A stretch of 63,974 nt of DNA, the filler included, from assembly GCA_964501035.1 (NCBI GenBank). It is 7 parts of 7 records of this genome, joined end to end, with 100 filler letters (N's around TTAATTAATTAA, not from the genome) between each part and the next. Parts side by side here need not be neighbours in the genome. Positions count along the whole stretch, not along the records: positions 10,633 to 20,940 come from CAZCRK010000059.1; 6 more parts are not named here. One strand, 5' to 3'. Below, piece by piece: positions 1-41,287 of this stretch. Every line of letters starts with the position of its first letter. Within the stretch, counting starts at the first letter, position 1. The notes under the pieces are model-generated. The model searched no databases, was not told the origin of the DNA, and saw only the letters and a list, made by a program, of their open reading frames with translations. Made by a program: the position numbers and the translations under genes.

Positions 1-1
1 T

Positions 2-1018
2 GAAATATTAACTTCTTCTACGGTCGTATTACATACAGAAAAATCTGTTGAAGATTTGGAATCTATAGACTTTGTATATACGAACAGAATAATTGAAGAA
101 TTTGACAATATAGTAAATGAAGATCAATACACAGTTTCAAAAACAAAATCTGAGTCAATTGATGCTGCAACTAGTTATTTAGTCACAGACTATAGTTACA
201 TTCTCTACAATGTTGATGCTGAAGGAAATATCAATAAACTCACATATCCAAGTTATTTTCTAATGAATGGGTTTTGGTTTGATGAAGATGACTATGACTA
301 TCACTCATGGTATGAAGAAGATGAGACAAATTCTCCACCTTATGGTTTTTTCTTTGAAAATGATGCAGTGAACGAAACTATATTCTATTCTAGTAGTGGT
401 TCGATTCGCGATGGTGAAAGAATAGTGTCAGATAATACTGTAGAAACTGCATATGGTGAGTATTATGTTGTTAATTCATATTCAGTGGATTCAGATACAG
501 TTACCATACCATTAGATGAAACTATTATTGAAAATGTTTTAATTGAAGATGATTGTAATGATGTGTGGGACTCAGAAAACAATCTATGTTTCATCGATTC
601 AAACAATGATTTGATTTGGAATGATTATTCATTTTTTGGTGGAGATTCATGTTACAAGGTAACTCGTGAAATTTCAATGACTTTGATTGGTCCTGATATT
701 GAGTATAGTGAAAAAGAAATCTCCTGGCTTGTGAGAGGACTTGGGATTGTCAAGGATGATATTTACATTAAATGGCCCGGTTCAGAATACCAGTTTGATG
801 AAGAAGATGGTATTTGTTTTACCGGCGAATATTGTAATTATGCTCGTCTTGAAATGGATGAGTTTAGAAATGGTAGTTTAGATAGGCAAGGTAATTTTGA
901 TTCTTACTTGAATATTCATAGTTTGCAGAATGAGTCTATGTTTGATTTTGAACCATTTCAAAAAAATAGAATGGTTGGGTTGAAGAAAATTAATGTTCCG
1001 GTGATTAATAATGATTAA
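2..1018 (+). CDS. Hypothetical acidic protein, 5'-truncated by window edge
   Basis: Frame is open from position 2 to the stop at 1018; D/E-rich; lies immediately upstream of the TonB-receptor cassette. No family recognised. Confidence 0.7.
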   Translation, partial: EILTSSTVVLHTEKSVEDLESIDFVYTNRIIEEFDNIVNEDQYTVSKTKSESIDAATSYLVTDYSYILYNVDAEGNINKLTYPSYFLMNGFWFDEDDYDYHSWYEEDETNSPPYGFFFENDAVNETIFYSSSGSIRDGERIVSDNTVETAYGEYYVVNSYSVDSDTVTIPLDETIIENVLIEDDCNDVWDSENNLCFIDSNNDLIWNDYSFFGGDSCYKVTREISMTLIGPDIEYSEKEISWLVRGLGIVKDDIYIKWPGSEYQFDEEDGICFTGEYCNYARLEMDEFRNGSLDRQGNFDSYLNIHSLQNESMFDFEPFQKNRMVGLKKINVPVINND

Positions 1019-1531
1019 TAAAAAGAAGATATCAATGATTAAAAATTTTGTATTTAGTTTTATTTTAATTTGTGGAATTGTAATTGCAGGAGCTGATGGT
1101 ACAATTAGAGGAAATGTAGCATTTGAGAGCGAACCGTTGATTGCAACAAATGTTTATATTGCAGAATTGGGGCTTGGTGCAATGGCTGATAAAGATGGGA
1201 ACTATGTTATTGATAATATTCCGATAGGTAATTATAGTGTTACTGCTTCTATGATTGGTTTCAAAACAACAAAGGTTGAAGGTGTAGCTGTTTTAAGGGG
1301 TGAAACAGTTTGGTTAAATTTCAATCTTCCTGTAGCTGCATTGGAAGGTGAAATAGTAATTTTATCTGCTGAAAATGAAGTATTTAAAAAGGATAAAAAC
1401 AAAAATAGGTTTTTAACATGGATTTACAATTTAATAACCGGTAATTAATAATGATTAATAAAAAGAAGATATCAATGATTAAAAATTTTGTATTTAGTTT
1501 TATTTTAATTTGTGGAATTGTATTTGCAGGA
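998..1531 (+). repeat. Direct repeat, 440-bp period: 998-1091 vs 1438-1531 (2 mismatches; 1004-1082 identical to 1444-1522)
   Basis: Direct comparison of the two copies, which cover the start region and signal peptide of both the small ORF and the receptor. Confidence 0.95.
1035..1448 (+). CDS. Stand-alone carboxypeptidase-regulatory-like (CarboxypepD_reg) domain protein; paralog of the receptor N-terminus
   Basis: Signal peptide plus GTIRGNV...DKDGNY...IPIGNYSVTASMIGF, collinear with the N-terminus of the next ORF. Start may be 1011 or 1035. Confidence 0.75.
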   Translation: MIKNFVFSFILICGIVIAGADGTIRGNVAFESEPLIATNVYIAELGLGAMADKDGNYVIDNIPIGNYSVTASMIGFKTTKVEGVAVLRGETVWLNFNLPVAALEGEIVILSAENEVFKKDKNKNRFLTWIYNLITGN

Positions 1532-4500
1532 ACGGATGGTACAATTCGTGGAAATGTGACAGATTTAGAGGGTTCACCTTTGCCTGGTTCTCAGATCTAT
1601 ATTGCTGATATGGGACTTGGAACAATGGCGGATGCAGATGGTAATTATATTCTCTTAAATATTCCAGTTGGGGATTATGATGTTACCGTGTCGATGATTG
1701 GTTTTAAAACGAATGTCGTGGAAGGCGTTTCTGTGTTGAGAGATGAAACGGTTTGGTTGAATTTTAGTTTATCCGTTGCAGCGCTTGAAGGTGATGTGGT
1801 TTATGTATCAGCTGAAAAAGCTTTGGTTGAAAAAGGTTCAACATCTAAAAAGGTAACGGTGGGTAAAGAAGCAATTGAAGCATTACCAATTCGTGATGTG
1901 ACTGAATTATATTCTCTTCAATCAGGGGTGGTAAAAGTTGAAAGCCAAACTCAAGGGATACCAGATCATAATGTGCGTGGTTTAGAAGAAGTTCATGTTA
2001 AAGGTGGACGTGCAGGTGAAATTGCCTATATGATTGATGGTCTATATATTCGAAATCCAATATTTGGTGGAATTGGCGATGTTACAAATTTAAATTTATT
2101 TGCGATACGGGAATTTGATTGGCAGCCGGGTGGCTTTAATGCGGAATATGGAGACGCTATGTCTGCAATCTCAAACCTCCATACTTCAACTGGATCAGAT
2201 GATTTTAGTTATAAATTTAAATATGAAACGAGTATGGTGGGGGCAGCCTTAGGCAATGAATATGATTTGCTGCGAGGAAATAATGAATATAATTTAGGGT
2301 TTGGCGGAAAAGTCCCATTTACACAAAAATTTTATTATTGGTTTTCTGGTAGATGGAGTAATGATGATGCATATAGGGTGTATGAGTTTGATGATGTCGT
2401 TTATTTAAATGATGAATCGGATTATTTCAATGAAGTAAACCTTGAGCATAATCTTAGCAATTTAGTTCAACCGTATGATACTGAGTCAGGATTTAGGGCA
2501 TTTGGTTTTGATAAAGTGTGGGATGCCTATGGAAAACTATCGTATAACCCAACAAATAAACTAAGATTTAACACATCCTTTTGGACCTTATCAAATCACA
2601 GAAAAGGTTTTGATACCAAATATTTATATTGGGATGAAGGTCAAAATGAACTCTTTAGAGATACTTATAGATTTACTGCAGATATGAATCATTCACTGGG
2701 AAGCTCTACATTTTATACTATTCGATATTCCTATTTTCAACAAGATATGTTTCTCGGTGTAAGATGGCAAGATAACGATAATGATGGATTTCCTGATTGG
2801 TTTGAATGGAGAAATGGTATTGATTTAGAAAGTGCATTTGGAATGGACCAATCCACAATATCAGATCCATATAATAAAAATATTGTACCTTATACCTTCT
2901 TAGAAGATTCTTTGGGGAATATAATTATTGATTACACTACTCGAGACATGCGTTCTGGTTGGCATGAAGGTGCAACACCGGGTACGTATAATTGGGATGT
3001 AGCAGAGGGTGAAGATCCCCAGTTGATACAAGAAGCAATTTATAGAGATGGAAGTTATTGGTTGCTTCCTGAAATGTATATAGATTATGCTGACTTTACA
3101 GACTATGATGATTACTATAACACATTTGCACATGACCCATACTTAGCTGCATTAGGTGGTCCCGCATTTTCCAACGTTGACGCTGATTTTTTAGGTGGAT
3201 ATGATGGTGAACTTGACCCATTTTACTATTTACCAACGGTTGCAGGCGAAGGATGGAGTGATGGCCAACTTTTTGGTGGTTCAGATAATTTCTACACCAA
3301 TGCTTCGGCTGTTACGAATGAAATCCGGTTTGATTTAACTTCTCAAGTTTCTGATAAATGGAAAGTGCGAACTGGGGTTGATTTAAAATCACACAAACTT
3401 GAGTATTTTGAAATGAAATACCCATGGCTAGGTGCTGAAGCACGGATAAACTCATTTGCTGAATTTTGGGAAGATACAGGTGAGGATGGATTGATTCAAG
3501 GAAGCCCCGAAGATTTTGAAGATTTAGATGGGAACCATGAATATGATAGCGGTGAACCATTTACTGATGCAAATGGGAATGGCGAATGGGATGAAAAAGT
3601 AGAAGTTGATTTTGGTGAAGGAAATGGTCAATGGGATGCCGGAGAGGGATATACCGATTCCAATAATAATGGTCAATGGGATAACTTTAGAGAACCTCAA
3701 GAATTATCTTTCTATTTACAGAACACATTTGAAGTACCGTGGATGGTAATTAATGCAGGAATTCGTTTTGATGGAGTGAATTACAATACGCAAGTATGGT
3801 CAGATCCGTATGGTGAGGCATCGCCAAACAGACCATGGTATTTTTATGACATTGGCGATCCTGAAGATGAAAGTGATGATGATTTATATGCAGATAATGG
3901 TCAATATGATGAAGGTGTAGAAATTGCAAGTGATACACCACTTCCATATTCTAATCAAACAGTTTTCTTTACTGAAGATCCCGGCAAATGGTATTGGAAA
4001 GTTAGCCCACGGTTAGGTTTTAGCCATGTGATAACAGATCAAGCAACATTTACATTTAATTATGGTGATTACTATCAGACACCTACGTATCAAAATGTGT
4101 ATTTAAACACAAATCGTCAGAAAGATCCAGAAGAATTGTTTGAAGAAAGTGATGAGCAAGTAATTGGTAATTCTACAATGACTGCATCTCGCACTCAATC
4201 GTATGAATTTGGATTTAATATTCAAGTGAATAGAAATTGGGCATACTCAGTGGCTGGTTGGGTGAAAGATATTGATCAATTGGTAACGGTAAAACGCCAA
4301 CGTTCTGGTGTGTATTCATACGATGTTTTTTCCAATGGTGATTTTGGATCAGCAAAGGGTATTGATTTAACGCTGAACAATAGAGGAATGTTGGTTAATA
4401 CATCTGTTCAATATACATATTCAGTTGCAAAAGCAAATAGTGAACATGATTGGGCAGCAATTGGAAACGAAGCATTAGAAGCGCCATTGCAAGAATCATT

Positions 4501-4978
4501 AATGTCTTTTGATAGAACACATGATCTAACAGTATCCATGTATACATTCCTACCCTATGGTATTAACGTGGGGATGACTGGATTCTTTCAATCCGGATCA
4601 CCATATACACCATTAAAACTTAATGGAGATTCCTATGAAGAAGATACAGAAAATCAAAATACTAAGCGGTCACCAAGCTATAAAACCGTAAATCTAGCAA
4701 TTTCAAAATATTTTAGTTTCAAAAAATCTAAAGTTTCATTAGGGTTGAATATTTCTAATGTGTTTAATATTCGAAATGAAATTGATATTTATGCTCTTAC
4801 AGGGACAGCAAATGATCCAGGTAATTACTATACTCAAGATGTTGGTGTTCCATATGGTGGTTCAGAATTTAGTGCAAATGACCCTGGTAAAGCACATTCA
4901 GGTTCGTACTATGATAGACCTTGGATGTTTTCTAGGCCTAGAGAACTTAACTTTTTTGTAAGATTAGATTTTAATTAA
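1475..4978 (+). CDS. TonB-dependent receptor with N-terminal CarboxypepD_reg domain
   Basis: Plug motifs (HVKGGRAGEIAYMIDG, GGFNAEYGDAMS), barrel motifs (INAGIRFD, SPRLGFSH), C-terminus PRELNFFVRLDFN. Start may be 1451 or 1475. Confidence 0.92.
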   Translation: MIKNFVFSFILICGIVFAGTDGTIRGNVTDLEGSPLPGSQIYIADMGLGTMADADGNYILLNIPVGDYDVTVSMIGFKTNVVEGVSVLRDETVWLNFSLSVAALEGDVVYVSAEKALVEKGSTSKKVTVGKEAIEALPIRDVTELYSLQSGVVKVESQTQGIPDHNVRGLEEVHVKGGRAGEIAYMIDGLYIRNPIFGGIGDVTNLNLFAIREFDWQPGGFNAEYGDAMSAISNLHTSTGSDDFSYKFKYETSMVGAALGNEYDLLRGNNEYNLGFGGKVPFTQKFYYWFSGRWSNDDAYRVYEFDDVVYLNDESDYFNEVNLEHNLSNLVQPYDTESGFRAFGFDKVWDAYGKLSYNPTNKLRFNTSFWTLSNHRKGFDTKYLYWDEGQNELFRDTYRFTADMNHSLGSSTFYTIRYSYFQQDMFLGVRWQDNDNDGFPDWFEWRNGIDLESAFGMDQSTISDPYNKNIVPYTFLEDSLGNIIIDYTTRDMRSGWHEGATPGTYNWDVAEGEDPQLIQEAIYRDGSYWLLPEMYIDYADFTDYDDYYNTFAHDPYLAALGGPAFSNVDADFLGGYDGELDPFYYLPTVAGEGWSDGQLFGGSDNFYTNASAVTNEIRFDLTSQVSDKWKVRTGVDLKSHKLEYFEMKYPWLGAEARINSFAEFWEDTGEDGLIQGSPEDFEDLDGNHEYDSGEPFTDANGNGEWDEKVEVDFGEGNGQWDAGEGYTDSNNNGQWDNFREPQELSFYLQNTFEVPWMVINAGIRFDGVNYNTQVWSDPYGEASPNRPWYFYDIGDPEDESDDDLYADNGQYDEGVEIASDTPLPYSNQTVFFTEDPGKWYWKVSPRLGFSHVITDQATFTFNYGDYYQTPTYQNVYLNTNRQKDPEELFEESDEQVIGNSTMTASRTQSYEFGFNIQVNRNWAYSVAGWVKDIDQLVTVKRQRSGVYSYDVFSNGDFGSAKGIDLTLNNRGMLVNTSVQYTYSVAKANSEHDWAAIGNEALEAPLQESLMSFDRTHDLTVSMYTFLPYGINVGMTGFFQSGSPYTPLKLNGDSYEEDTENQNTKRSPSYKTVNLAISKYFSFKKSKVSLGLNISNVFNIRNEIDIYALTGTANDPGNYYTQDVGVPYGGSEFSANDPGKAHSGSYYDRPWMFSRPRELNFFVRLDFN

Positions 4979-4997
4979 AAATAGAATTAAGGGAAAA

Positions 4998-7900
4998 ATG
5001 AAAAAAATTATTTCAATAATAGGGTTGTCAATTGTTTTCTCAGCAATTCCAACGACAGAAACTGGTTCCACGAGTCAGTTTAACTTAAATAGAATTGGTG
5101 ATTATGCCTTTCCATCTAACCCAGTTAATGATAGAGCAATGGGGTATTTGTTAGAAGGTAAAATAAAATCAATAATTCTCAACTCTGGAAATTTTATAGA
5201 TATTGATGTAGATAGGTCTGGATCATGGGAACAGTATCCTGTTGGGCTTTGGGGTAACTATGCATATTTACCTCAGGTTGGCTTAATGTCCGGTGCTCCT
5301 GGGATGCGATATGCATCAGATTTTAATGACTGGACAGATGTTGCTGACGTTGGGAGTAATGTTGTAGTTTGGGAGTCTAAAAGTGCTTATGTAAATTGGT
5401 TTAAAAATGAGTCAATGATAACAGATTCAACAGAAGGATCGTTTGCAGGTATTATTTTTGAAAATTATGATGACCACAAGGGTATAATTGGTGAAAAAGT
5501 TGAATTTGATAATACAATTGAAAACACCTTTGGCTCTGATAACCAATGGGCGTTTAGTCATTCAGATTCTTTGGTATATATTACATTGGAAAATGATGCA
5601 AATATTGATCCTAACAATTCAAACGCATACGGCAATGCAGAAGAAAAAAAAGCCATAGGATTTATTTATCCATGGGCTTTGAGACCAGCATTTGATTCCC
5701 GAAACTCAATACTTGACTATGATACATATCTTTATGATGGGTGTCAAGGGAAAGAAGACCCTTGGTCAAGTTGTGAAGAAGTTGAATATTATGGTTCAAC
5801 GGTATCTGAGTCATGGTTTCAACGTTCAGGTTATGATCTTGATTGGCATCCCGCAAATAAAGCTAGAATAAATACTCATGCTTTAAACTCAAATGCAGGA
5901 GATGTGTTTGGAGCAACCCCTTATACAGATTCAGGTGATGAAAATCCATTATTGGCTCATAGTAAATATTCTGAAACTTGGCCTACAACAATTGATGAAG
6001 AATCAGGTGAAGAAATCTCTTATTGGCCCGGTTGGTATGCTGAGAATTATATTGATACTTTGTCTGGTTGCTCAGGCACAAAGAAAGATCCTGATTGTTG
6101 GCAACAAGATATTGGGCGATTTGTATCTGATAATGATGTATATTTAGAATTTGACGATAGATGGGCGCATCGAGGAAATAGAACAAATAATGCACAAGAT
6201 GCACTGTTAACTAAAGGGTATCCATTAGGGTTAAGAGTAATGGCAACAGGGCACTCTTATGGAGTAGCATTTGCTGAAGACGTTATGTTTGTAACCACTA
6301 AAGTAAGGAATGAAAGTGGTGACTGGTGTGCATTTACTAAAGATTCTCAAGGTAATAAAATATATAACTATATCTGTACAAACCCACAATATTTCACTCA
6401 AGATGAATGTGAGATGTCAGGTGCAACGTGGGAGCAGGAATGTGGCGATGCAATGATTTTACCTGACGGTACAAGAATGAATGGTCGAAAAGGATTTGAT
6501 TATGAGGGTGTTTCTTTAGGTTTTTATTTTGATGCTGATGCTGCAACTCAAGATATAGATGGTGATACGTGGGTGCACTCCAATGATGATGATTTTATGG
6601 AATATTATGATGATAGGCCTGTGATTAATAATGAAGAGCTTATTATAAGTATGGCGATGATTTATGATTACGATGGCATAAGTAGTGGAGCAACTGATTT
6701 AGGAATTGTTGCTGTTCAGCTTTTAGATTCACCTTACGCTACGGATACAATTTGGGTTGGTACTGAAAGTAATCCACAACTATTTAGATTGCCAGGTGAA
6801 AGATTGAAAATGACAGATTGGCATTGGTTTGATTGGTTCCAACGACCAGGTGTGATGAATGCTGGTGCAAGTTCAACTCCTGGAGATAATAAGGAGGCTA
6901 TCCAGTATAAATTAATGGTAGGGGATACAACCAATCTTTCTGAAAATGAAAAGGCATGGTATTTCCATACTCCGAACCCATTACTCGACAATGACTATGA
7001 ATTAGATCCGCATTTTGATTCTTTAGAAGGTCTGGAGTTGGAAGAATCATTTACTGAAGGGCCAGATGGTTTAGATTGTGTTTTAATTTCTAGTTGTGGT
7101 CCTTTTGATTTAGAAGTTGGTGAAGAAGTTCCGTTTTCCTTTACAATCATTTTTGGTGAAGATAAAGATGATCTTGTTAAAAATGCAGAGTTTGCACAAG
7201 TTATGTATAATTCTCATTATCAAGGATATACTCCACCGACAAAGCCAAATATTTATGCAAATATAGATCATGAAAGAGTAGAAGTTACATGGGATCAAAT
7301 TGCAGAGAGTTCTACAGATGTTGTAACTGGATATTCTGATTTTGAAGGATATAAATTGTATAAAAGTGATGATGGTGGAATGACTTGGGGTGGACCTGAA
7401 GATAAAATTTATGATATTGACGGTGTTCATGTTGGGTGGCAACCGATTGCTCAATTTGATTTAACGGCAGACGAGGACTCAACACATTGTATTTATACAG
7501 ATGATGAATGTGTTTCACCAGATAGCAGAGGTGTGGTGTATTCAGGACCAGATCCTTCAGCACCGTGGTATAGCCTAGGTGATGATACAGGATTACAACA
7601 TACATATATTGACACCAATGTTATTGATGGTGTGGAGTACACATATTCAATCACTGCGTATGATACAGGTTTAGACCCAGATTACACAATTTGTTGGGAT
7701 TGCAACCCACCTGATACAGTGTATCATGAAGATGGTTCATATCATTTATCTTTTTATCCTGATACAACTTGGAATACATCTAATCCAGATCACTGGTCAA
7801 GTCCAGATGGATACCAAAGTATTGAGAGCTCAAAGGGTACAACTATACTTGACCCAAGTTTTGTAACCGTGATTCCTGGCTATAAAGCAAGCAATATTAC

Positions 7901-9503
7901 ATTCCCTGAAGCTGAGGAAGTGAATGAATTGTTTGTTGCAAACGAAGGTGTAGTTGGTACTGGGAACAAACACTTTTCGATGGTAAATGTTGAAGACTTG
8001 ATTGATTCTTATATGAAATTTGAAATAGATGCAATCGCAAGTGATGAAGTTTACGAAAATATGGCTGTTGACTCTCCACTGTTGTATGCTTTTGAAGTGG
8101 ATAATCCAACGGATCAAAATCCATTGTATACTTTTACACATACATCTCAATCGGACACATTAGTTGCTGATACACTAAATTATTATTTAGGTTTCCCTGG
8201 TGCTACAAATGTTGACAATGAACTTAAAATTCCTGTGTATAATTTAGAAGCCTATGAATTGCCTTACGCTGACGATTATGACTTTGAAACCAATTGGACA
8301 CAGATTTTTAATGGTTTAAGGTTTAAATTTGACAATATGCCATTTGATAGACCTGAGTTGGATTTTGAAGTTATTGATGTACTAGAATGGGGTCCAGATG
8401 TTGATAGTACTGTTATAAAATCTGTCGGAATTACATTTGAATATCAGTCTTCTGCAGATTATTCTAAAGGTTTAAATTTTAATTACTTGATTGAGTTTTC
8501 TGACACAGCTAGATTAGATACTAGTAAGTTGTCTCCTTATAACTCATCATTTTGTCACCGACATGTTGATCCTGAGACTGGTGAATATGTAGTAAATCCC
8601 ATCAGCGGTTCTAGTTCACAACAAGGAAAAGTAAGTTTCCTACCATTTAGTGTAACAAATTTAAAATCAGAAAATAAAGTTGATATGACACACCTTGATA
8701 AGGGAGTAGAAGAAGATTCAGATTCTGATGGGTACAAAGATTGTATTTGGACTCAAAATGAAAAAGTTTCATTTTCTAAAGATTATATTTTGGTTGGTGA
8801 TGAAATTGAAGATGAAAAGACATTTGATTTATATTTAGATATTGATTTGGAAAAAGCATTTCCAAATTTAGATTTTTCTGTAAACGTTTCAGGACAAGAT
8901 ATTGCATGGAACGAATTAGATGAATATCCTGAAGGATCTTTTGTGTTGTATGAAGGTATGGTATGGAAAGCAGTTGAGGATGTACCGTCCTACATTGATC
9001 CTGATTGGGATATAAAAGTTTATCCAAATGAATTTAGTGACGAAAATGCAGATGAAGTAAATGACAATCCATGGCGTATTCAATATCCATGGAAACACGG
9101 TGATTATGTTGTTGTTAAACCTAAGAAATTTTTTGTTGATGGAGATTCTTGGGTAGTTGATATGTCACGGTTTGGTGAAGAACATGATGTAACCCAAGCA
9201 GAAATAGACCAAGTTAGAGTAGTTCCGAATCCATATATTGCAAAATCTGACTTTAATGAAACAGAATACGTAAGGAAGTTGAGATTTACAAACTTACCTC
9301 AACATTGTAAGATTACAATTTATACAGTTTCTGGTGAGAAAGTTATAGACTTTAATCATGATAATGAATATGATAGTAATGAGTTTTGGAATTTAAGAAC
9401 TATGAATAACCAAGAGGTTGCTCCAGGTTTATATTTATTTACTGTTGAGTCAACAAGTGGTCAATACAGAAAACATATTGGTAAATTTGCGGTGGTTCGA
9501 TAA
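4998..9503 (+). CDS. Large secreted protein with Fn3-like region and T9SS/FlgD-Ig type C-terminal domain
   Basis: Signal peptide; DFEGYKLYKS...YTYSITAYD Fn3-like segment; C-terminus VRVVPNPY...LRFTNLP...IYTVSGEKV...WNLRT...VAPGLYLF...GKFAVVR. Confidence 0.85.
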   Translation: MKKIISIIGLSIVFSAIPTTETGSTSQFNLNRIGDYAFPSNPVNDRAMGYLLEGKIKSIILNSGNFIDIDVDRSGSWEQYPVGLWGNYAYLPQVGLMSGAPGMRYASDFNDWTDVADVGSNVVVWESKSAYVNWFKNESMITDSTEGSFAGIIFENYDDHKGIIGEKVEFDNTIENTFGSDNQWAFSHSDSLVYITLENDANIDPNNSNAYGNAEEKKAIGFIYPWALRPAFDSRNSILDYDTYLYDGCQGKEDPWSSCEEVEYYGSTVSESWFQRSGYDLDWHPANKARINTHALNSNAGDVFGATPYTDSGDENPLLAHSKYSETWPTTIDEESGEEISYWPGWYAENYIDTLSGCSGTKKDPDCWQQDIGRFVSDNDVYLEFDDRWAHRGNRTNNAQDALLTKGYPLGLRVMATGHSYGVAFAEDVMFVTTKVRNESGDWCAFTKDSQGNKIYNYICTNPQYFTQDECEMSGATWEQECGDAMILPDGTRMNGRKGFDYEGVSLGFYFDADAATQDIDGDTWVHSNDDDFMEYYDDRPVINNEELIISMAMIYDYDGISSGATDLGIVAVQLLDSPYATDTIWVGTESNPQLFRLPGERLKMTDWHWFDWFQRPGVMNAGASSTPGDNKEAIQYKLMVGDTTNLSENEKAWYFHTPNPLLDNDYELDPHFDSLEGLELEESFTEGPDGLDCVLISSCGPFDLEVGEEVPFSFTIIFGEDKDDLVKNAEFAQVMYNSHYQGYTPPTKPNIYANIDHERVEVTWDQIAESSTDVVTGYSDFEGYKLYKSDDGGMTWGGPEDKIYDIDGVHVGWQPIAQFDLTADEDSTHCIYTDDECVSPDSRGVVYSGPDPSAPWYSLGDDTGLQHTYIDTNVIDGVEYTYSITAYDTGLDPDYTICWDCNPPDTVYHEDGSYHLSFYPDTTWNTSNPDHWSSPDGYQSIESSKGTTILDPSFVTVIPGYKASNITFPEAEEVNELFVANEGVVGTGNKHFSMVNVEDLIDSYMKFEIDAIASDEVYENMAVDSPLLYAFEVDNPTDQNPLYTFTHTSQSDTLVADTLNYYLGFPGATNVDNELKIPVYNLEAYELPYADDYDFETNWTQIFNGLRFKFDNMPFDRPELDFEVIDVLEWGPDVDSTVIKSVGITFEYQSSADYSKGLNFNYLIEFSDTARLDTSKLSPYNSSFCHRHVDPETGEYVVNPISGSSSQQGKVSFLPFSVTNLKSENKVDMTHLDKGVEEDSDSDGYKDCIWTQNEKVSFSKDYILVGDEIEDEKTFDLYLDIDLEKAFPNLDFSVNVSGQDIAWNELDEYPEGSFVLYEGMVWKAVEDVPSYIDPDWDIKVYPNEFSDENADEVNDNPWRIQYPWKHGDYVVVKPKKFFVDGDSWVVDMSRFGEEHDVTQAEIDQVRVVPNPYIAKSDFNETEYVRKLRFTNLPQHCKITIYTVSGEKVIDFNHDNEYDSNEFWNLRTMNNQEVAPGLYLFTVESTSGQYRKHIGKFAVVR

Positions 9504-10510
9504 TGAGAAAGAATTTTATGAAAAGATTATTTATATTGTTAACAGTAGTAAATTATTTTACATTTGCTCAAACAGAATTGCCTGCAGAAGTTACAAAAGT
9601 AGCCACAGCAGCAGCTAACTGGCTTAAATTAGAAACAGGTGCTCGGAGTATTGGAATGGGTGGTGCACAAGTTGCTGCAGGAAGAGGTATCTCTGCAATT
9701 CCATATAATCCAGCAAGCTTAGGATTTATAACTGGATCAGAGTCATATTATTCCAAATCCTATTATTTAGCAGATATTTCCCATAATGTAATAAGTTATG
9801 GTACACAGGTGACCGCAACAGATTTTATTGGCTTGCATGTGTTCTATTTAGATTCAGGTCCAATTAGTGTAAATACTGAAGAAGAACCTGATGGTACAGG
9901 GGAATTGTATCATGTATTGGATATCTCAATCAGAGGGACTTACTCTAAACGCTTGACAGATAGACTTCGGGTTGGTGGAACGTTAAAATACATCCGAGAA
10001 CAAATATATACTACCTACATGCAGACATTTGCGTTTGATTTTGGTTCAAACTTTAATACAGGTATTTATGGGTTTGTTTTGGGAATGTCTGTAAGTAATT
10101 TTGGACCTGAAGTGAAATTTCAAGGTGAGGGTTTAGATATTGATGATAATACAGCATCACAAACAGATTTTCATCCATTACCTCTAACTTTTCGTTTAGG
10201 TGTCCAAAATGATTTGATTGGAAAAGATAGTGAGTTTTTCAAAAATGAAACGCATAGACTTACATTGGCAGCAGATGGTGTGAATCCTATTGACTATACA
10301 GTCTATGGTAGTACCGGGGTTGAATACTCTTGGAGAGAAACTGCCTTTGCTCGTTTCGGTAAACACGTTGGTCATGATACTGCTGGTATGAGTTTTGGTG
10401 CTGGAGTTACACTGAAAAAGGGTGTTAATGCTATTAGTGTTGATTATGCCTACGTTAATTATGGCGTTCTTGAAGAAACCCACCAATTTGGCCTCAGCTT
10501 CAAGTTTTAA
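9503..10510 (+). CDS. PorV/PorQ-family (UPF0164) outer-membrane beta-barrel
   Basis: GARSIGMGGA...YNPASL, LPLTFRLG, DYAY...THQFGLSFKF motifs; terminal Phe. Confidence 0.88.
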   Translation: MRKNFMKRLFILLTVVNYFTFAQTELPAEVTKVATAAANWLKLETGARSIGMGGAQVAAGRGISAIPYNPASLGFITGSESYYSKSYYLADISHNVISYGTQVTATDFIGLHVFYLDSGPISVNTEEEPDGTGELYHVLDISIRGTYSKRLTDRLRVGGTLKYIREQIYTTYMQTFAFDFGSNFNTGIYGFVLGMSVSNFGPEVKFQGEGLDIDDNTASQTDFHPLPLTFRLGVQNDLIGKDSEFFKNETHRLTLAADGVNPIDYTVYGSTGVEYSWRETAFARFGKHVGHDTAGMSFGAGVTLKKGVNAISVDYAYVNYGVLEETHQFGLSFKF

Positions 10511-10532
10511 CGTATTGTTACAAAATTGAACT

Positions 10533-10632
10533 NNNNNNNNNNNNNNNNNNNNNNNNNNNNNNNNNNNNNNNNNNNNTTAATTAATTAANNNNNNNNNNNN
10601 NNNNNNNNNNNNNNNNNNNNNNNNNNNNNNNN
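10533..10632. other. Artificial contig spacer
   Basis: N44-TTAATTAATTAA-N44, stops in all six frames. Confidence 0.99.
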
Positions 10633-16291: not shown

Positions 16292-17851
16292 TTAGAATAC
16301 TCGACTTCTATAGTCTTCAATTTCAATATTCTTTTTTTCATGAGAGAGCCATGTATTAAAAACTTTAGAATTTTTACCATTTAGCAATTCAATCCTAAGT
16401 GCTTCAGCTTCTTCTTCAAATTTTGTTTCATCTAATTCATCTTTAGAAACCATATTGATTTTTACAATACTGCTAAAAGTTTCAATTATACTTGAAATAT
16501 CTTTTGCTTGCATAGCTTTTAAGGTGCCAGTCAATGCATTACTTTTACCTATTGCTGTAAAACTACCACCTATGTTTTTGGTATCATTTTTAACATACTC
16601 AACAAAATCAGTTGAACTAGCATATGATTCCCATTCAGTTGGATTAGATGGTACAGATTCCATAATTGTTAAAGCATGGTCTGTTTTCTTTTCTTTGAGT
16701 AATGTTCGCTTAATTCCACTTTCAACCTGTGCCATATCTTTGTAACCTGCTGGTGTATAGCCAATTATGTGAAATACAGCAATTCCATTATCCATTGTAA
16801 TGGGGTCAGAGACATCACCAATTGAATTATCAAATGCAAATCGTACGGCTTGACGAGAAACACCCAAGTTGAATGGAATTCCAGAATTATTTGCAAATCC
16901 TTCAACAATATTGAGAGTGTCTTGTACTTTAATCTCAAACATTTCGATAGCTTCAGTGAAACTTGAATAGTCGGCTTCATCTACAAATAGAAGAGAGTTT
17001 TGCATAATTGAATCTTGGATTGTTGAAATATTTAAAGAATCAACATCGTCAGATTTTGGATATTCCCAGTACACATACTCTACAACTTGACTTTCATCAG
17101 TTGTATATAACTCATCCTTATCTTCATTGTATTTTGCTAAAATTTCATCATCATTCACTTCTACCAAAGAGTCTGGAATACTATTCGAATTAATATGTAG
17201 AAAATCAATTGTGCAATTCACATTTCGTTTAGTATACTCTTCTTTCACTTCAATATCTGAAACAGATGCAGTATTATTATACAGACTTCGTAGTTTTCTA
17301 TCTGCCAAATATGTACGTAAATAGTTTTCCCATAAAACCAGTAAAGAAGAAAGTTCTTCCGGAAGCAAACCATTTTTAACAGCCTCTTGATATGTTGGCA
17401 TATCAAATGATTCATCATCATTAATGAAAAATCCAGCTGACTTTAAATTTTCTTGAAATGCACTTGGTGGTGTAAGTAAAAGAAAATCATAAATTTCATC
17501 ATTTTCAACAGTTAAGCCAAGTTCTTCAATTTTTTTATCTTTAATTACACGTTCGACAATTGTATTCCAAGCAAAATCACTTGCATTTTGGTATGCACGG
17601 CTATCTAGCTTTCTATCTTGGTTTCGATATTGATTCAATTGACGTTCTCGTTCATTGATAAAACGTTGTCGAGGAATCTCAGAGTCTCCAACCTTTCCAA
17701 TATACAGACTTGTGTTTGTACGTCCCATAATAATATCCATTATATTTGCACCACCAACCAGTCCACCTACTACCATACTGAGTAAGAAAAACGTTAACAA
17801 TATCCATAAAACAATATGAGATCTCTCTCTAATTTGTGTCATATTAAACAC
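16292..17851 (-). CDS. ppiD: PpiD/SurA_N-domain periplasmic chaperone
   Basis: MTQIRE plus TM anchor, IGKVGDSEI, LGLTVENDEI, YNEDKDELY, C-terminal IEDYR. Confidence 0.75.
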   Translation of the reverse strand: MFNMTQIRERSHIVLWILLTFFLLSMVVGGLVGGANIMDIIMGRTNTSLYIGKVGDSEIPRQRFINERERQLNQYRNQDRKLDSRAYQNASDFAWNTIVERVIKDKKIEELGLTVENDEIYDFLLLTPPSAFQENLKSAGFFINDDESFDMPTYQEAVKNGLLPEELSSLLVLWENYLRTYLADRKLRSLYNNTASVSDIEVKEEYTKRNVNCTIDFLHINSNSIPDSLVEVNDDEILAKYNEDKDELYTTDESQVVEYVYWEYPKSDDVDSLNISTIQDSIMQNSLLFVDEADYSSFTEAIEMFEIKVQDTLNIVEGFANNSGIPFNLGVSRQAVRFAFDNSIGDVSDPITMDNGIAVFHIIGYTPAGYKDMAQVESGIKRTLLKEKKTDHALTIMESVPSNPTEWESYASSTDFVEYVKNDTKNIGGSFTAIGKSNALTGTLKAMQAKDISSIIETFSSIVKINMVSKDELDETKFEEEAEALRIELLNGKNSKVFNTWLSHEKKNIEIEDYRSRVF

Positions 17852-17902
17852 AGCAATTCTCCAAATTTAATTATAGTTATGTGAAGGAAAAACTCCTTCG
17901 GG

Positions 17903-17975
<73 letters not shown>

Positions 17976-17991
17976 GAAAATATAAGCACCA

Positions 17992-18020
17992 AATTTATTT
18001 TTTTTAGAGGGTATTGTCAA
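17992..18020 (-). promoter_or_regulatory. Sigma70-type promoter of tRNA-Ala
   Basis: TTGACA-17 nt-TAAATT on the minus strand, just upstream of the tRNA. Confidence 0.7.
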
Positions 18021-18096
18021 AGTAAAAACCACAATAATAAAATAATAAATTTCTAAAAGGATTGAATAAGATGAATTATTTCTGATAAATTTAAGG

Positions 18097-18594
18097 ATGA
18101 AATTACCTGTAAAACAGATAATTATCCTCATAAGCATATCTACTTTGTTAGGATTTTTGCGTTTTCTTTTACTAGATAATCCAGATTTTACTCTTATAAA
18201 AATTGAACGAGAGTTAAAAACAGGTTTAATGGAGAAATATGCAGATTTTGAAATACCTGATATGTTAACCGAACCTATGTTAGTTAATTCTGAAATTGCA
18301 TTTAATTTATACTCAACCAATAGAGCATTGTTAATTGATGCACGAGATAATGAAGAATTTCAAATTAAACACATCAAAAATGCTATTAATATTCCTTATG
18401 ATTATTATGAAGAGTATCAAAATGTCATAGATAGTTTAGATATGGATTTTGCATATATCGTGTACTGCAGTGGGGGAGAATGTAGTTTGAGTTTGGATTT
18501 AGCAGACTATCTATTTGAGTATGGATTTTTTAATATGTTTGTATATGAGGGTGGTTTGCCTGAATGGGAAGAAAACGGATATCCAGTCGAATGA
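18097..18594 (+). CDS. Membrane-anchored rhodanese-domain protein
   Basis: LIDAR..EF...HIKNAINIP, active-site loop YCSGGECSLS, YEGGLPEW...GYPVE. Confidence 0.9.
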   Translation: MKLPVKQIIILISISTLLGFLRFLLLDNPDFTLIKIERELKTGLMEKYADFEIPDMLTEPMLVNSEIAFNLYSTNRALLIDARDNEEFQIKHIKNAINIPYDYYEEYQNVIDSLDMDFAYIVYCSGGECSLSLDLADYLFEYGFFNMFVYEGGLPEWEENGYPVE

Positions 18595-19043
18595 AGGCAC
18601 TATTTCAACACAAACATTATGTATTGTTATCACGTTTTATTCTTGGAGTCATTTTGATTTGGGCAAGCGTATATAAAATTGAAGACCCAGTAGCATTTGC
18701 CAAAATTGTTCATAACTACCATGTGTTTCCTGTGTTTTTAGAAAACCTCATTGCATTAATTGTACCGTGGTTAGAATTGATTCTTGGTGTCTGTTTATTA
18801 TTTGGGGTATTTTTGGACGGTGTATCTTACCTTTCAATTGCCATATTTATCTTATTTATTGTCATTTTATCACAAGCATATTTAAGAGGGATTGATTTAC
18901 ATTGTGGGTGTTTTTCATCAGATGTATCAGGCAAAGTTAATGATTTAAGAGCAGATATGCTAAAACGAATTTTGGAAGATATTGTATATTTAGGATGTGC
19001 AATAATAATCAAATATAGAAGTTGGTTTTTAAGGGATGTATGA
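18591..19043 (+). CDS. MauE/DoxX-family redox-associated membrane protein
   Basis: RFILG...KIEDP..FA, PWLELILG, RGIDLHCGCF. Start reassigned to ATG 18591, which overlaps the upstream TGA. Confidence 0.9.
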   Translation: MKALFQHKHYVLLSRFILGVILIWASVYKIEDPVAFAKIVHNYHVFPVFLENLIALIVPWLELILGVCLLFGVFLDGVSYLSIAIFILFIVILSQAYLRGIDLHCGCFSSDVSGKVNDLRADMLKRILEDIVYLGCAIIIKYRSWFLRDV

Positions 19044-20173
19044 GAAAAATTAGTTATTTATTTTTGTGTTTGTTTTTACTAAATACTGCACAAGCTAAAG
19101 ACGGAATTGTAAATTATTTTAAATTGTTTGGTTCTACCAATGTTCATGGTGAAACCGAACCGTGTGGCTGAAAAAAGAAACCTTTGGGCGGTCTTGCCCG
19201 AAAAGCTACCATTATTGATGAAGCCAGAAAAGATGGCTCTGAAGTGGTCATTGTTGATGCTGGTAATCTATTCTTCAAAAAAGAAAACATACCACCCGGT
19301 GTTACAACAGAAATAGCAAAAATAAGTGCAAATACAATTGTTGAATCTTTCAATATTATTGGTTGTGATGCATTTTCACCTGGATCCAAAGATTTTGCTG
19401 GTGGGTTGAAATTCTTAAAAGAATTGGAAGCTAAATCAGATTTTCCGTTTGTATCTTCGAATATTTTGGATACAAATAATACCAATATTTTTGACTCATA
19501 TACTATTGTTTCTAAAGGTGGGATATCAGCAGGATTTATTGGCGCGTCATCTATTTTCTCACATGCTGATTTAAATGTAAGTGAACCTATTGAAGCGATA
19601 GCGAATTCTGTACAAGCATTGACAGGAAATGTAGATATGATTATTTTACTTTTTGATGCCACTGAACAGGATATGAGACGGTTATACGAAAAGAAGTTAA
19701 ACATTGATTTAATTTTAAGAAGCAAATCCAAAAAACGATCCAGAGATGGAGGAAGCAAAATTCCAACATATACTGCAGGTGATAGAGGAAAGTACTTGTA
19801 TCAGTTTGATGTGCAAATGAAAACTAGTGGACAGAAATTTACTGATTTATCCGCATTTAAAAATAAACGAGATCATGCACATAAACGATTGAATTCGATG
19901 CGAAAAGGAAACCTTATGGTTGATTTACGTGAAATGTATGCAGATGATGTGACAACCATAAAAAAGATTGAGAATTATGAACGTCAAATTGATATTGCAG
20001 AACGTACATTATCAGATGCTATTAATACTATTAAATTTACAAAACATGAGCTAGGTAAAAAGATAATTGACAGACCAGATGTTTTGTTAATAGTAGATTC
20101 TGGAAAGCATAAAATTGCTGAAATTTCTACACCGCAATTACCACCGCATAATCATAAAAACCATTCGCATTAA
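19040..20173 (+). CDS. UshA/5'-nucleotidase-fold-like selenoprotein (377 aa; Sec at codon 44, TGA 19169-19171)
   Basis: ATG 19040 gives MRKISYLFLCLFLLNTAQA (signal) ...STNVHGETEPCG-TGA-KKKPLGGLARKAT, in frame with ORF 19184..20173; SECIS-like hairpin follows. Confidence 0.87.
19183..19202 (+). promoter_or_regulatory. Putative bacterial SECIS element
   Basis: TTTGGGCG-GTCT-TGCCCGAA stem-loop; apical loop starts with G, 20 nt after the UGA. Confidence 0.7.
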
Positions 20174-20265
20174 TTTTAGTAATTTAATTAAAAAATGTGT
20201 TGGTATAAGTAGAATTAAATTTCTAAAATATGCTCCGCCGAGAGGCGAGGTTTTTATATAAGATT

Positions 20266-20338
20266 GCGAAAGTAGCTCAGCTGGTAGAGCATCACGTTGC
20301 CAACGTGAGGGTCGTCGGTTCGAATCCGATCTTTCGCT
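20266..20338 (+). tRNA. tRNA-Gly(GCC)
   Basis: Anticodon arm TCACG-TTGCCAA-CGTGA; T-arm GGTTCGAATCC. Confidence 0.97.
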
Positions 20339-20340
20339 CT

Positions 20341-20366
20341 ACGGTCTCTGCGGAGACCGTTTTTTT
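20341..20366 (+). terminator. Terminator-like hairpin between tRNA-Gly and tRNA-Cys
   Basis: ACGGTCTC-TGCG-GAGACCGT followed by T6. Confidence 0.65.
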
Positions 20367-20367
20367 A

Positions 20368-20439
20368 GGCGTCGTAGCCAAGTGGTAAGGCACCGGTTTG
20401 CAAAACCGCTATTCACCAGTTCGAATCTGGTCGACGCCT
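20368..20439 (+). tRNA. tRNA-Cys(GCA)
   Basis: GGCGTCG acceptor stem; anticodon loop TTGCAAA; one C.C mismatch at the top of the anticodon stem. Confidence 0.95.
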
Positions 20440-20477
20440 CTTAAAAGTGACAAGTAATCTATAGTCACTATTTTTTT

Positions 20478-20562
20478 GCCGAGGTGGCGAAATTGGTAGA
20501 CGCAAGAGACTTAAAATCTCTCGGTACTATGTACCGTGCCGGTTCGATTCCGGCCCTCGGTA
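20478..20562 (+). tRNA. tRNA-Leu(TAA)
   Basis: AGAGA-CTTAAAA-TCTCT anticodon arm, long variable arm; classic Gly-Cys-Leu cluster. Confidence 0.97.
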
Positions 20563-20565
20563 CAC

Positions 20566-20585
20566 AAACCCTCATTTGAGGGTTT
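20566..20585. terminator. Hairpin terminator after the tRNA cluster
   Basis: AAACCCTC-ATTT-GAGGGTTT between convergent units. Confidence 0.65.
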
Positions 20586-20586
20586 G

Positions 20587-20940
20587 TTATTTTATAGGTA
20601 TCATTATTTGAACTTCTAAGCCAGGGCGATGAGATTTGAACGTGATGTCTCCATTATGTTTATTTACGATCCAATTACAAATTGATAAACCTAAACCAGA
20701 CCCAGATGTAGAGTTTTCTATATTATGAGATCTAAAAAATCTACTAGTTAACAATTCAAGTTCATTATCTGAAACTCCGGTTCCGTAATCACGAATAGAA
20801 ACCAAAGCCATTTCATTATGAATAGTAACTACAATTTTTATAATGTTGTTTTCAAAGCTGAATTTGATAGCATTATCAATGATATTTCTAAACAATATGT
20901 TTAACCAATTTTTATCACCCATACATGAAATTGAATCTAT
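20587..20940 (-). CDS. Sensor histidine kinase, C-terminal HATPase_c fragment (5' part lost at contig end)
   Basis: N-box NIIDNAIKF, G1 DYGTG, F-box RFFR, G2 GSGLGLSIC. Confidence 0.88.
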   Translation of the reverse strand: MDSISCMGDKNWLNILFRNIIDNAIKFSFENNIIKIVVTIHNEMALVSIRDYGTGVSDNELELLTSRFFRSHNIENSTSGSGLGLSICNWIVNKHNGDITFKSHRPGLEVQIMIPIK

Positions 20941-21040
20941 NNNNNNNNNNNNNNNNNNNNNNNNNNNNNNNNNNNNNNNNNNNNTTAATTAATTAANNNN
21001 NNNNNNNNNNNNNNNNNNNNNNNNNNNNNNNNNNNNNNNN
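20941..21040. other. Artificial contig spacer
   Basis: N44-TTAATTAATTAA-N44. Confidence 0.99.
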
Positions 21041-21375
21041 TTATTTATCTTCTTCGTTGCTTCTTTGTCGATTCCTTCTCGCAAAACAACTTTTTGCCTA
21101 ACGGACATTCCTGTTGCGTTTTCTTCTTTTTGATAATCAAATGTTTTGATGGATATTTTTCGAGCAATGGCGCGGTTTTCAAGCATATCTCGAATAGCAT
21201 TTAACTGCATATCATTACTGGCTGAAATTGTTATGGTTTTTTCTGATTTATTCAATGAAATTGCAGAATCACTCCCTCTAAAATCATATCTATTTGCAAT
21301 ATCTCGAGTTACCGTATTAACTGTATTATCTATTTCTTGGATATCTAATTTACTTACAATGTCAAAAGATGGCAT
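21041..21375 (-). CDS. yajQ: YajQ family nucleotide/c-di-GMP-binding protein, 3'-truncated
   Basis: MPSFDIVSK...RYDFRGS...GIDKE motifs. Confidence 0.93.
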
Positions 21376-33526: not shown

Positions 33527-33533
33527 AACGGGG

Positions 33534-33606
33534 TGACTCCGGTGCGACTCGAACGCACGACCAATGGCTTAAAAGGCCACTGCTCTACCAACTGAGCTAC
33601 GGAGTC
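33534..33606 (-). tRNA. tRNA-Lys(TTT)
   Basis: GACTCCG acceptor; GTGGC-CTTTTAA-GCCAT anticodon arm. Confidence 0.97.
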
Positions 33607-33770: not shown

Positions 33771-34126
33771 GGGGGCGCCTTGGTTTCGACGGGTAAAACC
33801 AGTTATCTTGTTGCATGTGGAGGATCTCCTTGGTCACCTCCTTAATCAACTAAGGAAAAACGATAAATGCCGATTATGGCTACGCTGCTGCCGCTTAATT
33901 GACGACAGCTATCTCTTAACGGGCGCGTCTGCCTCCAGTTAATGAGGTATCATTCATTGCAGACTGCTCCATTTTTTTGTCTGAGAAAAATGGCTAAGAC
34001 TTTCAGACTGGTTCAATTCTGTGTGCGGTCGTTCGCATAGCTTGAATAAGATTCAAGAATGACCTAAACATGTAGATACAGTTTAATTGCTTTATTCGGA
34101 CGGCGGTTCGATTCCGCCCGCCTCCA
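33771..34126 (+). ncRNA. ssrA: tmRNA; tag (A)ADYGYAAAA at 33869-33898
   Basis: 5' GGGGGCG...GGTTTCGACGG, 3' GGTTCGATTCC...CGCCTCCA with G3.U pair; tag ORF follows ATAAAT. Confidence 0.96.
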
Positions 34127-34184
34127 CTATATTTAGACAAATCAGTCATCTTTCTTGGTTAGTGTACTAAATTTGTTTGAAATT

Positions 34185-41162: not shown

Positions 41163-41213
41163 AAAGGGTCATGACTAGTTAAATTGTGGTTTTGTAAAAT
41201 TTACCAGCTATTG

Positions 41214-41287
41214 TACACCCGACAGGATTCGAACCTGTAACCGCTGGAGCCGAAATCCAGTGCTCTATCCAGTTGAGCCACGGGTGC
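41214..41287 (-). tRNA. tRNA-Arg(TCG)
   Basis: GCACCCG acceptor; CTGGA-TTTCGGC-TCCAG anticodon arm. Confidence 0.95.

Follow-up and report, generated by a model that had tools for sequence, protein, structure and literature searches.

Several bacterial systems combine a small, polytopic membrane protein bearing cysteines on the periplasmic side with a periplasmic dithiol protein that serves a client: MauE pairs with MauD in the maturation of methylamine dehydrogenase, DsbB with DsbA, and VKOR with the thioredoxin domain to which it is fused. DsbB and VKOR couple periplasmic cysteines to quinone, and DsbD-type proteins relay electrons through paired cysteines on both faces of the membrane. Here, we describe a unit of similar plan in a SAR406-type bacterium of the phylum Neomarinimicrobiota (Candidatus Neomarinimicrobiota, also Marinimicrobia). 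The window, i.e., the whole stretch of 63,974 nucleotides analysed here from assembly GCA_964501035.1, contains three consecutive genes on the + strand that encode a rhodanese (gene 1, 18097–18594), a MauE/DoxX-family membrane protein (gene 2, 18591–19043) and an exported UshA-like selenoprotein (gene 3, 19040–20173). Compared with MauE-MauD, DsbB-DsbA and VKOR, the partner has a rhodanese fold with two cysteines separated by four residues (C-x4-C) in place of the thioredoxin fold, the role of client falls to a selenoprotein that has a nucleotidase fold, and MauE has one conserved cysteine pair (CGC) where DsbB has two. We propose that the three genes encode a single dedicated relay of the cell envelope that exchanges electrons, by thiol/selenol chemistry, between the membrane and a cysteine-selenocysteine site, a reading to which we give a probability of roughly 55%. 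It would not be a new kind of system, and its mechanism is a proposal drawn from the comparison of genes and sequences.

Two other described systems come close. SseA, a cytoplasmic two-domain sulfurtransferase of the rhodanese family, is part of the DoxX-SseA-SodA system, in which, to our knowledge, neither a selenoprotein nor a CGC motif takes part. The passages of PMC6930017 on this system describe a membrane oxidoreductase complex formed by Mycobacterium tuberculosis DoxX with SseA and SodA, and thus the same combination of a DoxX-clan membrane protein with a predicted thiol oxidoreductase as found here; our operon has no counterpart of the superoxide dismutase. The second system is TsoB, the nearest multi-Sec analogue in NCBIfam, which the relevant passage of a 2026 review, its one trace in the literature searched, lists as a selenoprotein resembling a rhodanese/DsbD fusion with a UxxxxU motif. 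Gene 1 matches the TsoB model (NF045694) through its rhodanese part alone (42.2 bits for a cut-off of 805, E = 2.8e-11). Both are rhodaneses with two redox residues at the same spacing, joined to a membrane thiol-redox partner, but the membrane part is MauE here and DsbD-like in TsoB, and the loop residues are cysteines instead of selenocysteines.

Linkage and fusions of the three genes

The three genes are chained by ATGA start/stop overlaps (18591–18594 between genes 1 and 2, 19040–19043 between genes 2 and 3) and bounded by tRNA genes, as a previous sequence-only reading of this stretch had described; the motifs that it assigned to the genes, CSGGEC, HCGC and PCGU, are likewise present, one in each. 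The first gene, identified by open reading frame (ORF) and Pfam, encodes a single-domain rhodanese of 165 residues (PF00581, 62.3 bits for a cut-off of 22.2, E = 6.3e-17). Its hydropathy profile has a hydrophobic segment near residues 3–21 and the remainder of the protein is acidic (29 D+E versus 9 K+R), from which an N-terminal membrane anchor is predicted. Many rhodaneses end the active-site loop in Arg, Thr or Ser; here the loop, C124-S-G-G-E-C129 (18466–18483, + strand), ends in a second cysteine. The C-x4-C motif was found in all 34 loci where the three genes occur together (see below), and neither C124 nor C129 varies among the 22 aligned sequences (alignment A5).

The second gene encodes 150 residues, shares its start site with its orthologues and matches Pfam MauE (PF07291) with 86.6 bits for a cut-off of 27 (E = 2.2e-24), the match to DoxX being weak (1.2e-4). 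The motif H104-C-G-C107 (18900–18911, + strand) lies at the end of the third of four long helices in the single-chain model (residues 3–27, 45–74, 78–105 and 113–149), whose mean predicted local distance difference test (pLDDT) is 64. The C-G-C is invariant in 27 of 27 aligned sequences (A4), with C105, G106 and C107 also invariant in A7, and under the inferred topology A4 contains no conserved cytoplasmic cysteine. This is the only MauE of the genome, which encodes a VKOR and a DsbD-type protein elsewhere; no DsbB was found in the assembly (95.7% complete). We considered and rejected the idea that MauE is the general substitute of the cell for DsbB, given the presence of VKOR and the DsbD-type protein. 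The VKOR domain (G000:C31:17365-17769, locus L176) is in a 396-residue open frame and may be fused to a further domain.

The three genes are found together in 34 of the 40 loci of the order, with the gene order and strand of the window in all 20 loci of the same family (its own included) and in 14 of the 20 more distant ones. Their junctions range from −19 to +17 nucleotides, and ATGA-type overlaps join rhodanese to MauE in 15 of these loci and MauE to gene 3 in 14 (both with heuristic starts). The six remaining loci, where the neighbours of the selenoprotein gene are unrelated, are a second copy in genome G050 and all five loci of one family, hereafter f5. Outside the order, MauE has an orthologue (E ≤ 1e-10) in 81 of the 121 genomes sampled across the phylum. 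We picked 20 loci by their MauE match, 10 from sister orders of the same class and 10 from other classes. All 10 loci of the sister orders encode the three proteins in another order: UshA-like (PCG followed by TGA), rhodanese (C-x4-C) and MauE (CGC). In the other classes, the rhodanese gene also adjoins MauE in 10 of 10 loci, with differing neighbours and no UshA-like gene within about 3 kb on each side; in 5 of 5 of these other-class genomes, a short UshA-like gene with one TGA is encoded on another contig. A divergently oriented gene for a protein of about 500 residues with TPR and DUF3108 domains lies beside the rhodanese-MauE pair in 3 of the 10 other-class loci (L189, L190 and L191). The grouping is not unique to one genome, an outcome that the sequence-only reading had named as one that would refute its proposal: it recurs in the 34 loci of the order, in the 10 of the sister orders and in one metagenome locus described below.

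Some loci have the first two genes fused. In 7 of the 34 loci (L019, L021, L022, L025, L030, L043 and L048), rhodanese and MauE form a single ORF of 356–392 residues that contains both motifs, with an additional hydrophobic helix between the two domains; in the one fused ORF scanned with Pfam, Rhodanese covers residues 62–154 and MauE residues 218–334. A search for longer forms among proteins with the MauE query P0002 returned none, which is weak evidence, and the fusions appeared in the loci themselves. Three of the seven genomes with fused forms belong to one genus, g7, a fourth genome of which has separate genes.

Family f5 shows another arrangement. No rhodanese-MauE pair was found there, and in 5 of 5 genomes the sole match to the MauE domain is in an open frame of 321–343 residues. 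The two proteins that we read (314 and 317 residues) consist of MauE with CGC, a helix, and a C-terminal domain with a CxxC motif (DCHDCW or DCPHCW). They score 109 and 105 bits against the model of the BT_3928 family (NF045576), whose cut-off is 250. The MauE of the window matches the N-terminal part of the same model, all matches being below the cut-off, and differs from that family in standing alone with a rhodanese as neighbour. The two f5 genes (L091:1423-2376 and L095:1432-2376) follow an ORF that, judged by eye, is nitrilase-like.

The UshA-like selenoprotein and its haem-bearing relatives

The frame of gene 3 is open for 377 codons when its single in-frame TGA (19169–19171) is read through, which gives the motif P41-C42-G43-U44 (19160–19171, + strand). 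An orthologue-level match (E ≤ 2.8e-40) is present in 54 of 61 related genomes; the other 7, which are 72 to 96% complete, have weak matches. Since G050 has two copies, these 54 genomes give 55 aligned rows. Translating through TGA, 54 of the 55 keep the in-frame TGA, with the frame conserved on either side of it, and the remaining one (G044) reads PCGC in a continuous frame. C42 is nearly invariant (alignment A3). A hairpin resembling a selenocysteine insertion sequence (SECIS), with a 7-bp stem around GGUCU-type loop bases (19184–19201, + strand), begins 12 nucleotides past the TGA. Of the 39 TGA-bearing orthologues, 37 were aligned (the two with N were excluded); 96.4% of the cells are paired, compared with 34–58% in slid controls. 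The outermost pair is CG in 21 sequences, UA in 14, AU in 1 and unpaired in none; its compensatory changes fall on synonymous positions of Leu and Arg codons, and none of 500 shuffles reached the observed covariation score. The genome encodes a tRNA for selenocysteine (65.8 bits for a cut-off of 47), selA (523 bits), the adjoining selB (375 bits) and selD (379 bits), all above their curated cut-offs. The conserved TGA, the covarying hairpin and this machinery lead us to conclude, by comparative evidence, that the TGA of gene 3 is decoded as selenocysteine. The selD gene (G000:C13:7047-7973, L014) has one in-frame TGA of its own, and the selenophosphate synthetase is probably itself a selenoprotein here.

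That gene 3 encodes a selenoprotein had thus been anticipated correctly; what had been overlooked is that it belongs to a listed family. Gene 3 matches NF041198 (UshA_like_PCGU) over model positions 5–386 of 519 with an E-value of 1.7e-60 and 205.1 bits. It falls short of the curated cut-off of 275 because it lacks the C-terminal part of the model (positions 387–519), in whose place it has a helical part and a His-rich tail, HNHKNHSH (20147–20170, + strand). It shares the N-terminal UshA-like domain and, inside it, the PCG[U/C] motif, and is a short-form member of the known UshA-like CxU selenoproteins. The Global Ocean Sampling selenoproteome of 2008 reports 'COG0737, UshA-like' as a CxU family with 76 selenocysteine sequences in 20 samples and 92 cysteine homologues, counts it among the 20 major selenoprotein families of surface-ocean metagenomes, and sets it apart from the major families with Cys-based redox motifs, according to its passages on the family (PMC2398784). 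Two reviews list it again (PMC9312934 and PMC13188914). The passages on the family in these three publications give neither a function nor partners, and the words 'MauE' and 'DoxX' are absent from the 2008 text (PMC2398784) and from that of 2026 on selenoproteins. In the literature covered, selenoproteome supplements aside, we found in print neither a partnership of MauE, rhodanese and selenoprotein nor rhodanese-MauE fusions, MauE-CxxC forms or the UshA-like family as a redox module. The selenoprotein family is thus known already; its conserved partners, MauE and a two-cysteine rhodanese, and its likely redox role are new. For a family listed without function since 2008, the partners, fusions and haem-bearing homologues are a first concrete and testable handle.

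The N-terminus of gene 3 looks by eye like a signal peptide (MRKISYLFLCLFLLNTAQA, 19040–19096, + strand), and export of the product is predicted from the sequence MRKISYLFLCLFLLNTAQA/KD and from hydropathy; the orthologues of family f5 have lipobox-like N-termini instead, with the look of lipoprotein signals. An AlphaFold2 model built with 58 sequences is of high confidence (pLDDT 94.8, predicted template modelling score 0.89). Its best Foldseek matches in PDB are Escherichia coli UshA, CD73 and YfkN (E = 6e-20 to 1e-17, query-normalised TM-score 0.5–0.64, about 17% identity), and a profile search of PDB gave 2e-18 to 3ivd. Metallophosphatases of this type have the consensus motifs DxH, GD and GNHE. 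In the profile alignment with solved nucleotidases, these have become N-V-H, G-N and G-S-K-D in gene 3, and the histidine of the first motif, His36, varies even among close relatives. Pfam detected neither Metallophos nor 5_nucleotid_C in the protein, which ends at 377 residues. The replaced motifs, the variable His36 and the missing Metallophos match indicate, as far as alignment and model can tell, that the protein has retained the nucleotidase fold but lost the two-metal phosphoesterase site; an ordinary nucleotidase was rejected on this ground. Compared with E. coli UshA, gene 3 thus has the same fold (E = 6e-20 to 1oie, query-normalised TM-score 0.53–0.64, about 17% identity) and the same location (periplasmic, predicted for gene 3), but it has changed metal motifs and no C-terminal substrate-binding domain, and it has gained a Cys-Gly-Sec, which sits in a loop 6 to 8 residues past the first metal motif. 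The His-rich tail is found in close relatives (alignment A1) and is absent from several more distant orthologues, so that it characterises part of the order only; tails of relatives include GRLPGDPHHGHSH and HDHDGDGIPDH, as well as GDPHHGHSH and HDHDGDG types.

A search of gene 3 against 1.84 billion representative proteins gave 4057 matches at E ≤ 0.001 and 50 at ≤ 1e-30. Among them, long homologues of 444–542 residues join a PCGC-bearing domain to a region with four CxxCH motifs, which Pfam assigned to Cytochrome_C554 in 7 of the 7 scanned. This four-haem domain is where the short form lacks positions 387–519 of NF041198. The remark of the sequence-only reading that no cytochrome c partner (CxxCH) is encoded in the unit is borne out by the three proteins, in which no such motif was found, but it had missed the cytochrome fused to the homologous domain in other lineages. 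One much longer protein (P0171, 1207 residues) combines two UshA-like stretches, a DsbA-like thioredoxin domain and Cytochrome_C554.

A metagenome scan gave 569 relatives of the long form, of which 80 were kept; in the 64 where the motif is visible, its last position is TGA in 26 and Cys in 38. We then scanned upstream of 40 long-form loci, which gave 65 ORFs (those of at least 75 residues on the same + strand within 2.6 kb; downstream and opposite-strand ORFs were excluded). One locus, L138, encodes in order a DUF1573 protein, a rhodanese, a MauE with SCGCF, and an UshA-like protein with both PCGU and four haems; the loop of its rhodanese has a single cysteine. In another, L126, tblastn detected a MauE upstream. 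Since L138 has both, the haem domain and the MauE-rhodanese pair are not strict alternatives, an idea that we rejected. The other ORFs included DUF1573 proteins in 4 of the 40 loci (L133, L138, L146 and L155), thioredoxin-fold proteins in 2, a P-type ATPase with a cupredoxin-like protein in 1 and a MerR regulator in 1; the rest were unrelated. The family listing of PMC2398784 names DUF1573 (pfam07610), too, as a selenoprotein family, 'OS_HP2', with the motif UxC.

A proposed envelope relay and its alternatives

If the three proteins form one relay, Cys42-Gly-Sec44 would cycle between a thiol/selenol pair and a selenenylsulfide. The N-terminal helix of the rhodanese would tether the domain to the outer face of the membrane, and the CGC of MauE would lie at the periplasmic end of the third MauE helix. 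Electrons could then move along a chain made up of the selenoprotein (CGU), the rhodanese (C-x4-C), MauE (CGC) and a membrane carrier, which would probably be quinone, with MauE and rhodanese acting together in the manner of DsbB or of a VKOR and its thioredoxin partner. The relay would keep the cysteine-selenocysteine centre in its working redox state for the turnover of a periplasmic substrate. The oxidising direction, from thiol to quinone, should be the easier on thermodynamic grounds. In many other lineages, the haem domain may serve as the wire.

Several observations fit this proposal. The rhodanese-MauE fusions, the MauE-CxxC form of f5 and the four-haem fusions are what an electron/thiol relay could look like in different lineages, and contact between the proteins is suggested by gene linkage and fusions. 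We read the rhodanese as a dithiol/disulfide shuttle chiefly because f5 has a CxxC domain in its place. That MauE has its one conserved cysteine pair at the outer face, and lacks conserved cysteines on the cytoplasmic side, argues against a two-face relay of the DsbD type and for a resemblance to DsbB and VKOR. Because VKOR and a DsbD-type protein are encoded elsewhere and MauE is single, the system is more readily seen as dedicated than as part of the general disulfide machinery. The sidedness is consistent as well. In the rhodanese, basic residues precede the one N-terminal helix and the body is acidic, a charge pattern that fits an outward-facing domain. The fusions need exactly one more helix, which would bring the chain back into the cytoplasm before MauE; with its N-terminus inside, MauE would expose its CGC to the periplasm, where the rhodanese domain and the secreted selenoprotein would also be. 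The motifs, whose location on opposite sides of the membrane would have spoken against the relay, would thus all be periplasmic. The original proposal had left open a relay of electrons or of sulfur or selenium: its electron/thiol half gains from the fusions, the MauE-CxxC proteins and the haem forms, and its sulfur/selenium-transfer half comes out weaker because a CxxC domain can replace the rhodanese. Seen this way, the poorly understood MauE family may have a role as a DsbB/VKOR-like partner of domains other than thioredoxin.

A number of points weigh against the relay. Rhodanese and MauE lie upstream of the long form in 1 of the 40 loci, so that most haem forms lack the pair, and the single-cysteine loop of the rhodanese at that one locus means that the second cysteine is not universal. 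The selenoprotein stands alone in the five f5 loci and in the second copy of G050. In the other classes, pair and selenoprotein are unlinked, and the pair may have a general job of its own. The topology comes from helix counting and charge, with a MauE model of low confidence, and quinone as the carrier of MauE is suggested by analogy with the quinone link of the DoxD/DoxX clan. The genes around the unit, which encode NamZ, SSF and MFS transporters, a PD40 protein and a PpiD-like protein, are unrelated to it and give no hint of a substrate.

A broader reading takes the relay as one instance of something larger. UshA-fold Cys-Gly-Sec proteins could be an unrecognised class of periplasmic oxidoreductases, thiol/selenol enzymes derived from a phosphatase fold that had lost its metals, and would probably act on an oxyanion of S, Se or As or on polysulfide in the old phosphate pocket. 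They could have two interchangeable respiratory wirings, a fused four-haem domain or MauE-rhodanese (C-x4-C), and the latter would then add a third type of bacterial thiol:quinone oxidoreductase to DsbB and VKOR. Arsenate reductases did arise from phosphatase folds, and SAR406 is among the most abundant deep-ocean lineages; if this reading were true, the system would be near-universal in SAR406. We regard this reading as tempting but doubtful.

Among the competing explanations, the one that survives best makes the unit a device for sulfur or selenium trafficking, in which a persulfide or perselenide on Cys124 would be exchanged with the Cys-Sec site and MauE would anchor or re-oxidise the carrier, on the model of periplasmic Sud, which feeds polysulfide reductase. 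The rhodanese domain is intact and its catalytic cysteine invariant, the distant locus L138 has an ordinary single-cysteine loop, SoxB, an enzyme of the sulfur cycle, belongs to the same nucleotidase superfamily, and SAR406 has been linked to sulfur cycling. We nevertheless think it rather unlikely: f5 yielded no rhodanese-MauE pair and has a CxxC domain joined to MauE instead, the second loop cysteine is invariant across the phylum sample, a persulfide carrier would explain selenocysteine at both loop positions of TsoB less well than a dithiol/disulfide couple, and no sulfur-metabolism genes are nearby.

It is also unlikely, in our view, that the association is loose, with the pair as a general thiol-redox module of the envelope and the selenoprotein as a separate enzyme, e.g., a scavenger of peroxides or electrophiles, that happens to be co-transcribed in one class. 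The pair does occur without an adjacent selenoprotein gene in the 10 other-class loci, the selenoprotein occurs without the pair in f5 and in the second copy of G050, and most long forms lack the pair. However, the genes stay linked across orders that arrange them differently, about half of the loci have overlapping start and stop codons, 5 of 5 other-class genomes with the pair keep a short selenocysteine form elsewhere, and the trio recurs around a distant haem-fused homologue.

A role in metal handling, with Cys-Gly-Sec and the His-rich tail as ligands of a soft metal (Cu, Hg, Zn or Ni) in a periplasmic chaperone or in detoxification, seems to us very improbable. His-rich tails occur here (HNHKNHSH) and in relatives, genes for a P-type ATPase and a cupredoxin-like protein precede one long-form locus, and a MerR regulator is near another; but the tail is absent from several more distant orthologues, these 2 of 40 long-form loci are the only ones near metal genes, and electron transfer is what the fused haem domains and the thiol-redox partners suggest. 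Finally, the view that the TGA is a true stop (leaving a 43-residue peptide and a separate 329-residue ORF), that the gene is broken, or that its product is an ordinary nucleotidase is already close to refuted: public gene calls mostly begin past the TGA or show W there, but both sides of it are conserved in 54 matches, the cysteine form of G044 is continuous, the hairpin covaries, the selenocysteine machinery is complete, and the metal motifs are lost.

Borders of the unit and the rest of the window

The unit lies on contig CAZCRK010000059.1 of an assembly of 1.87 Mb in 167 contigs. Upstream, it is bordered by a tRNA-Ala(GGC) gene on the − strand (17901–17975), and downstream by tRNA-Gly(GCC), tRNA-Cys(GCA) and tRNA-Leu(TAA) on the + strand (20266–20563), identified by tRNA and Rfam scans. 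The Rfam scan of 17500–21000 found these four tRNAs alone, with no SECIS family and no further RNA. No RNA dataset was listed as containing 18097–20173; one seawater run has a fraction of 0.07 of the sampled words and is probably DNA. A weak promoter-like site, TTGTCA-18-TAAAAT (18014–18043, + strand, by motif scan), lies 54 nucleotides before the first ATG; since the region has 14 such sites and shuffled sequences give 12.6, the site is no evidence by itself. Between tRNA-Gly and the operon lies a weak terminator-like element (20235–20248, called on the − strand), a short GC hairpin with T runs; the terminator scan gave 1 such site compared with 0.9 expected from shuffled sequence.

In many related drafts (e.g., L018, L023–L027 and L031), the contig ends 120–650 nucleotides 3' of the selenoprotein gene. 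The run of three tRNAs occupies that place in the window, and it may be a recurrent point of assembly breakage. The window itself consists of draft contigs joined by N runs (around 10533–10632 and 20940–20990); its positions 1–10532 map to contig C58 and the unit to C59, and the ORFs at 20843–20992 and 20989–21375 extend into filler. Elsewhere in the window are genes for a tmRNA (33771–34127, tag peptide ADYGYAAAA), a tRNA-Lys (33532–33606) and a tRNA-Arg (41213–41287).

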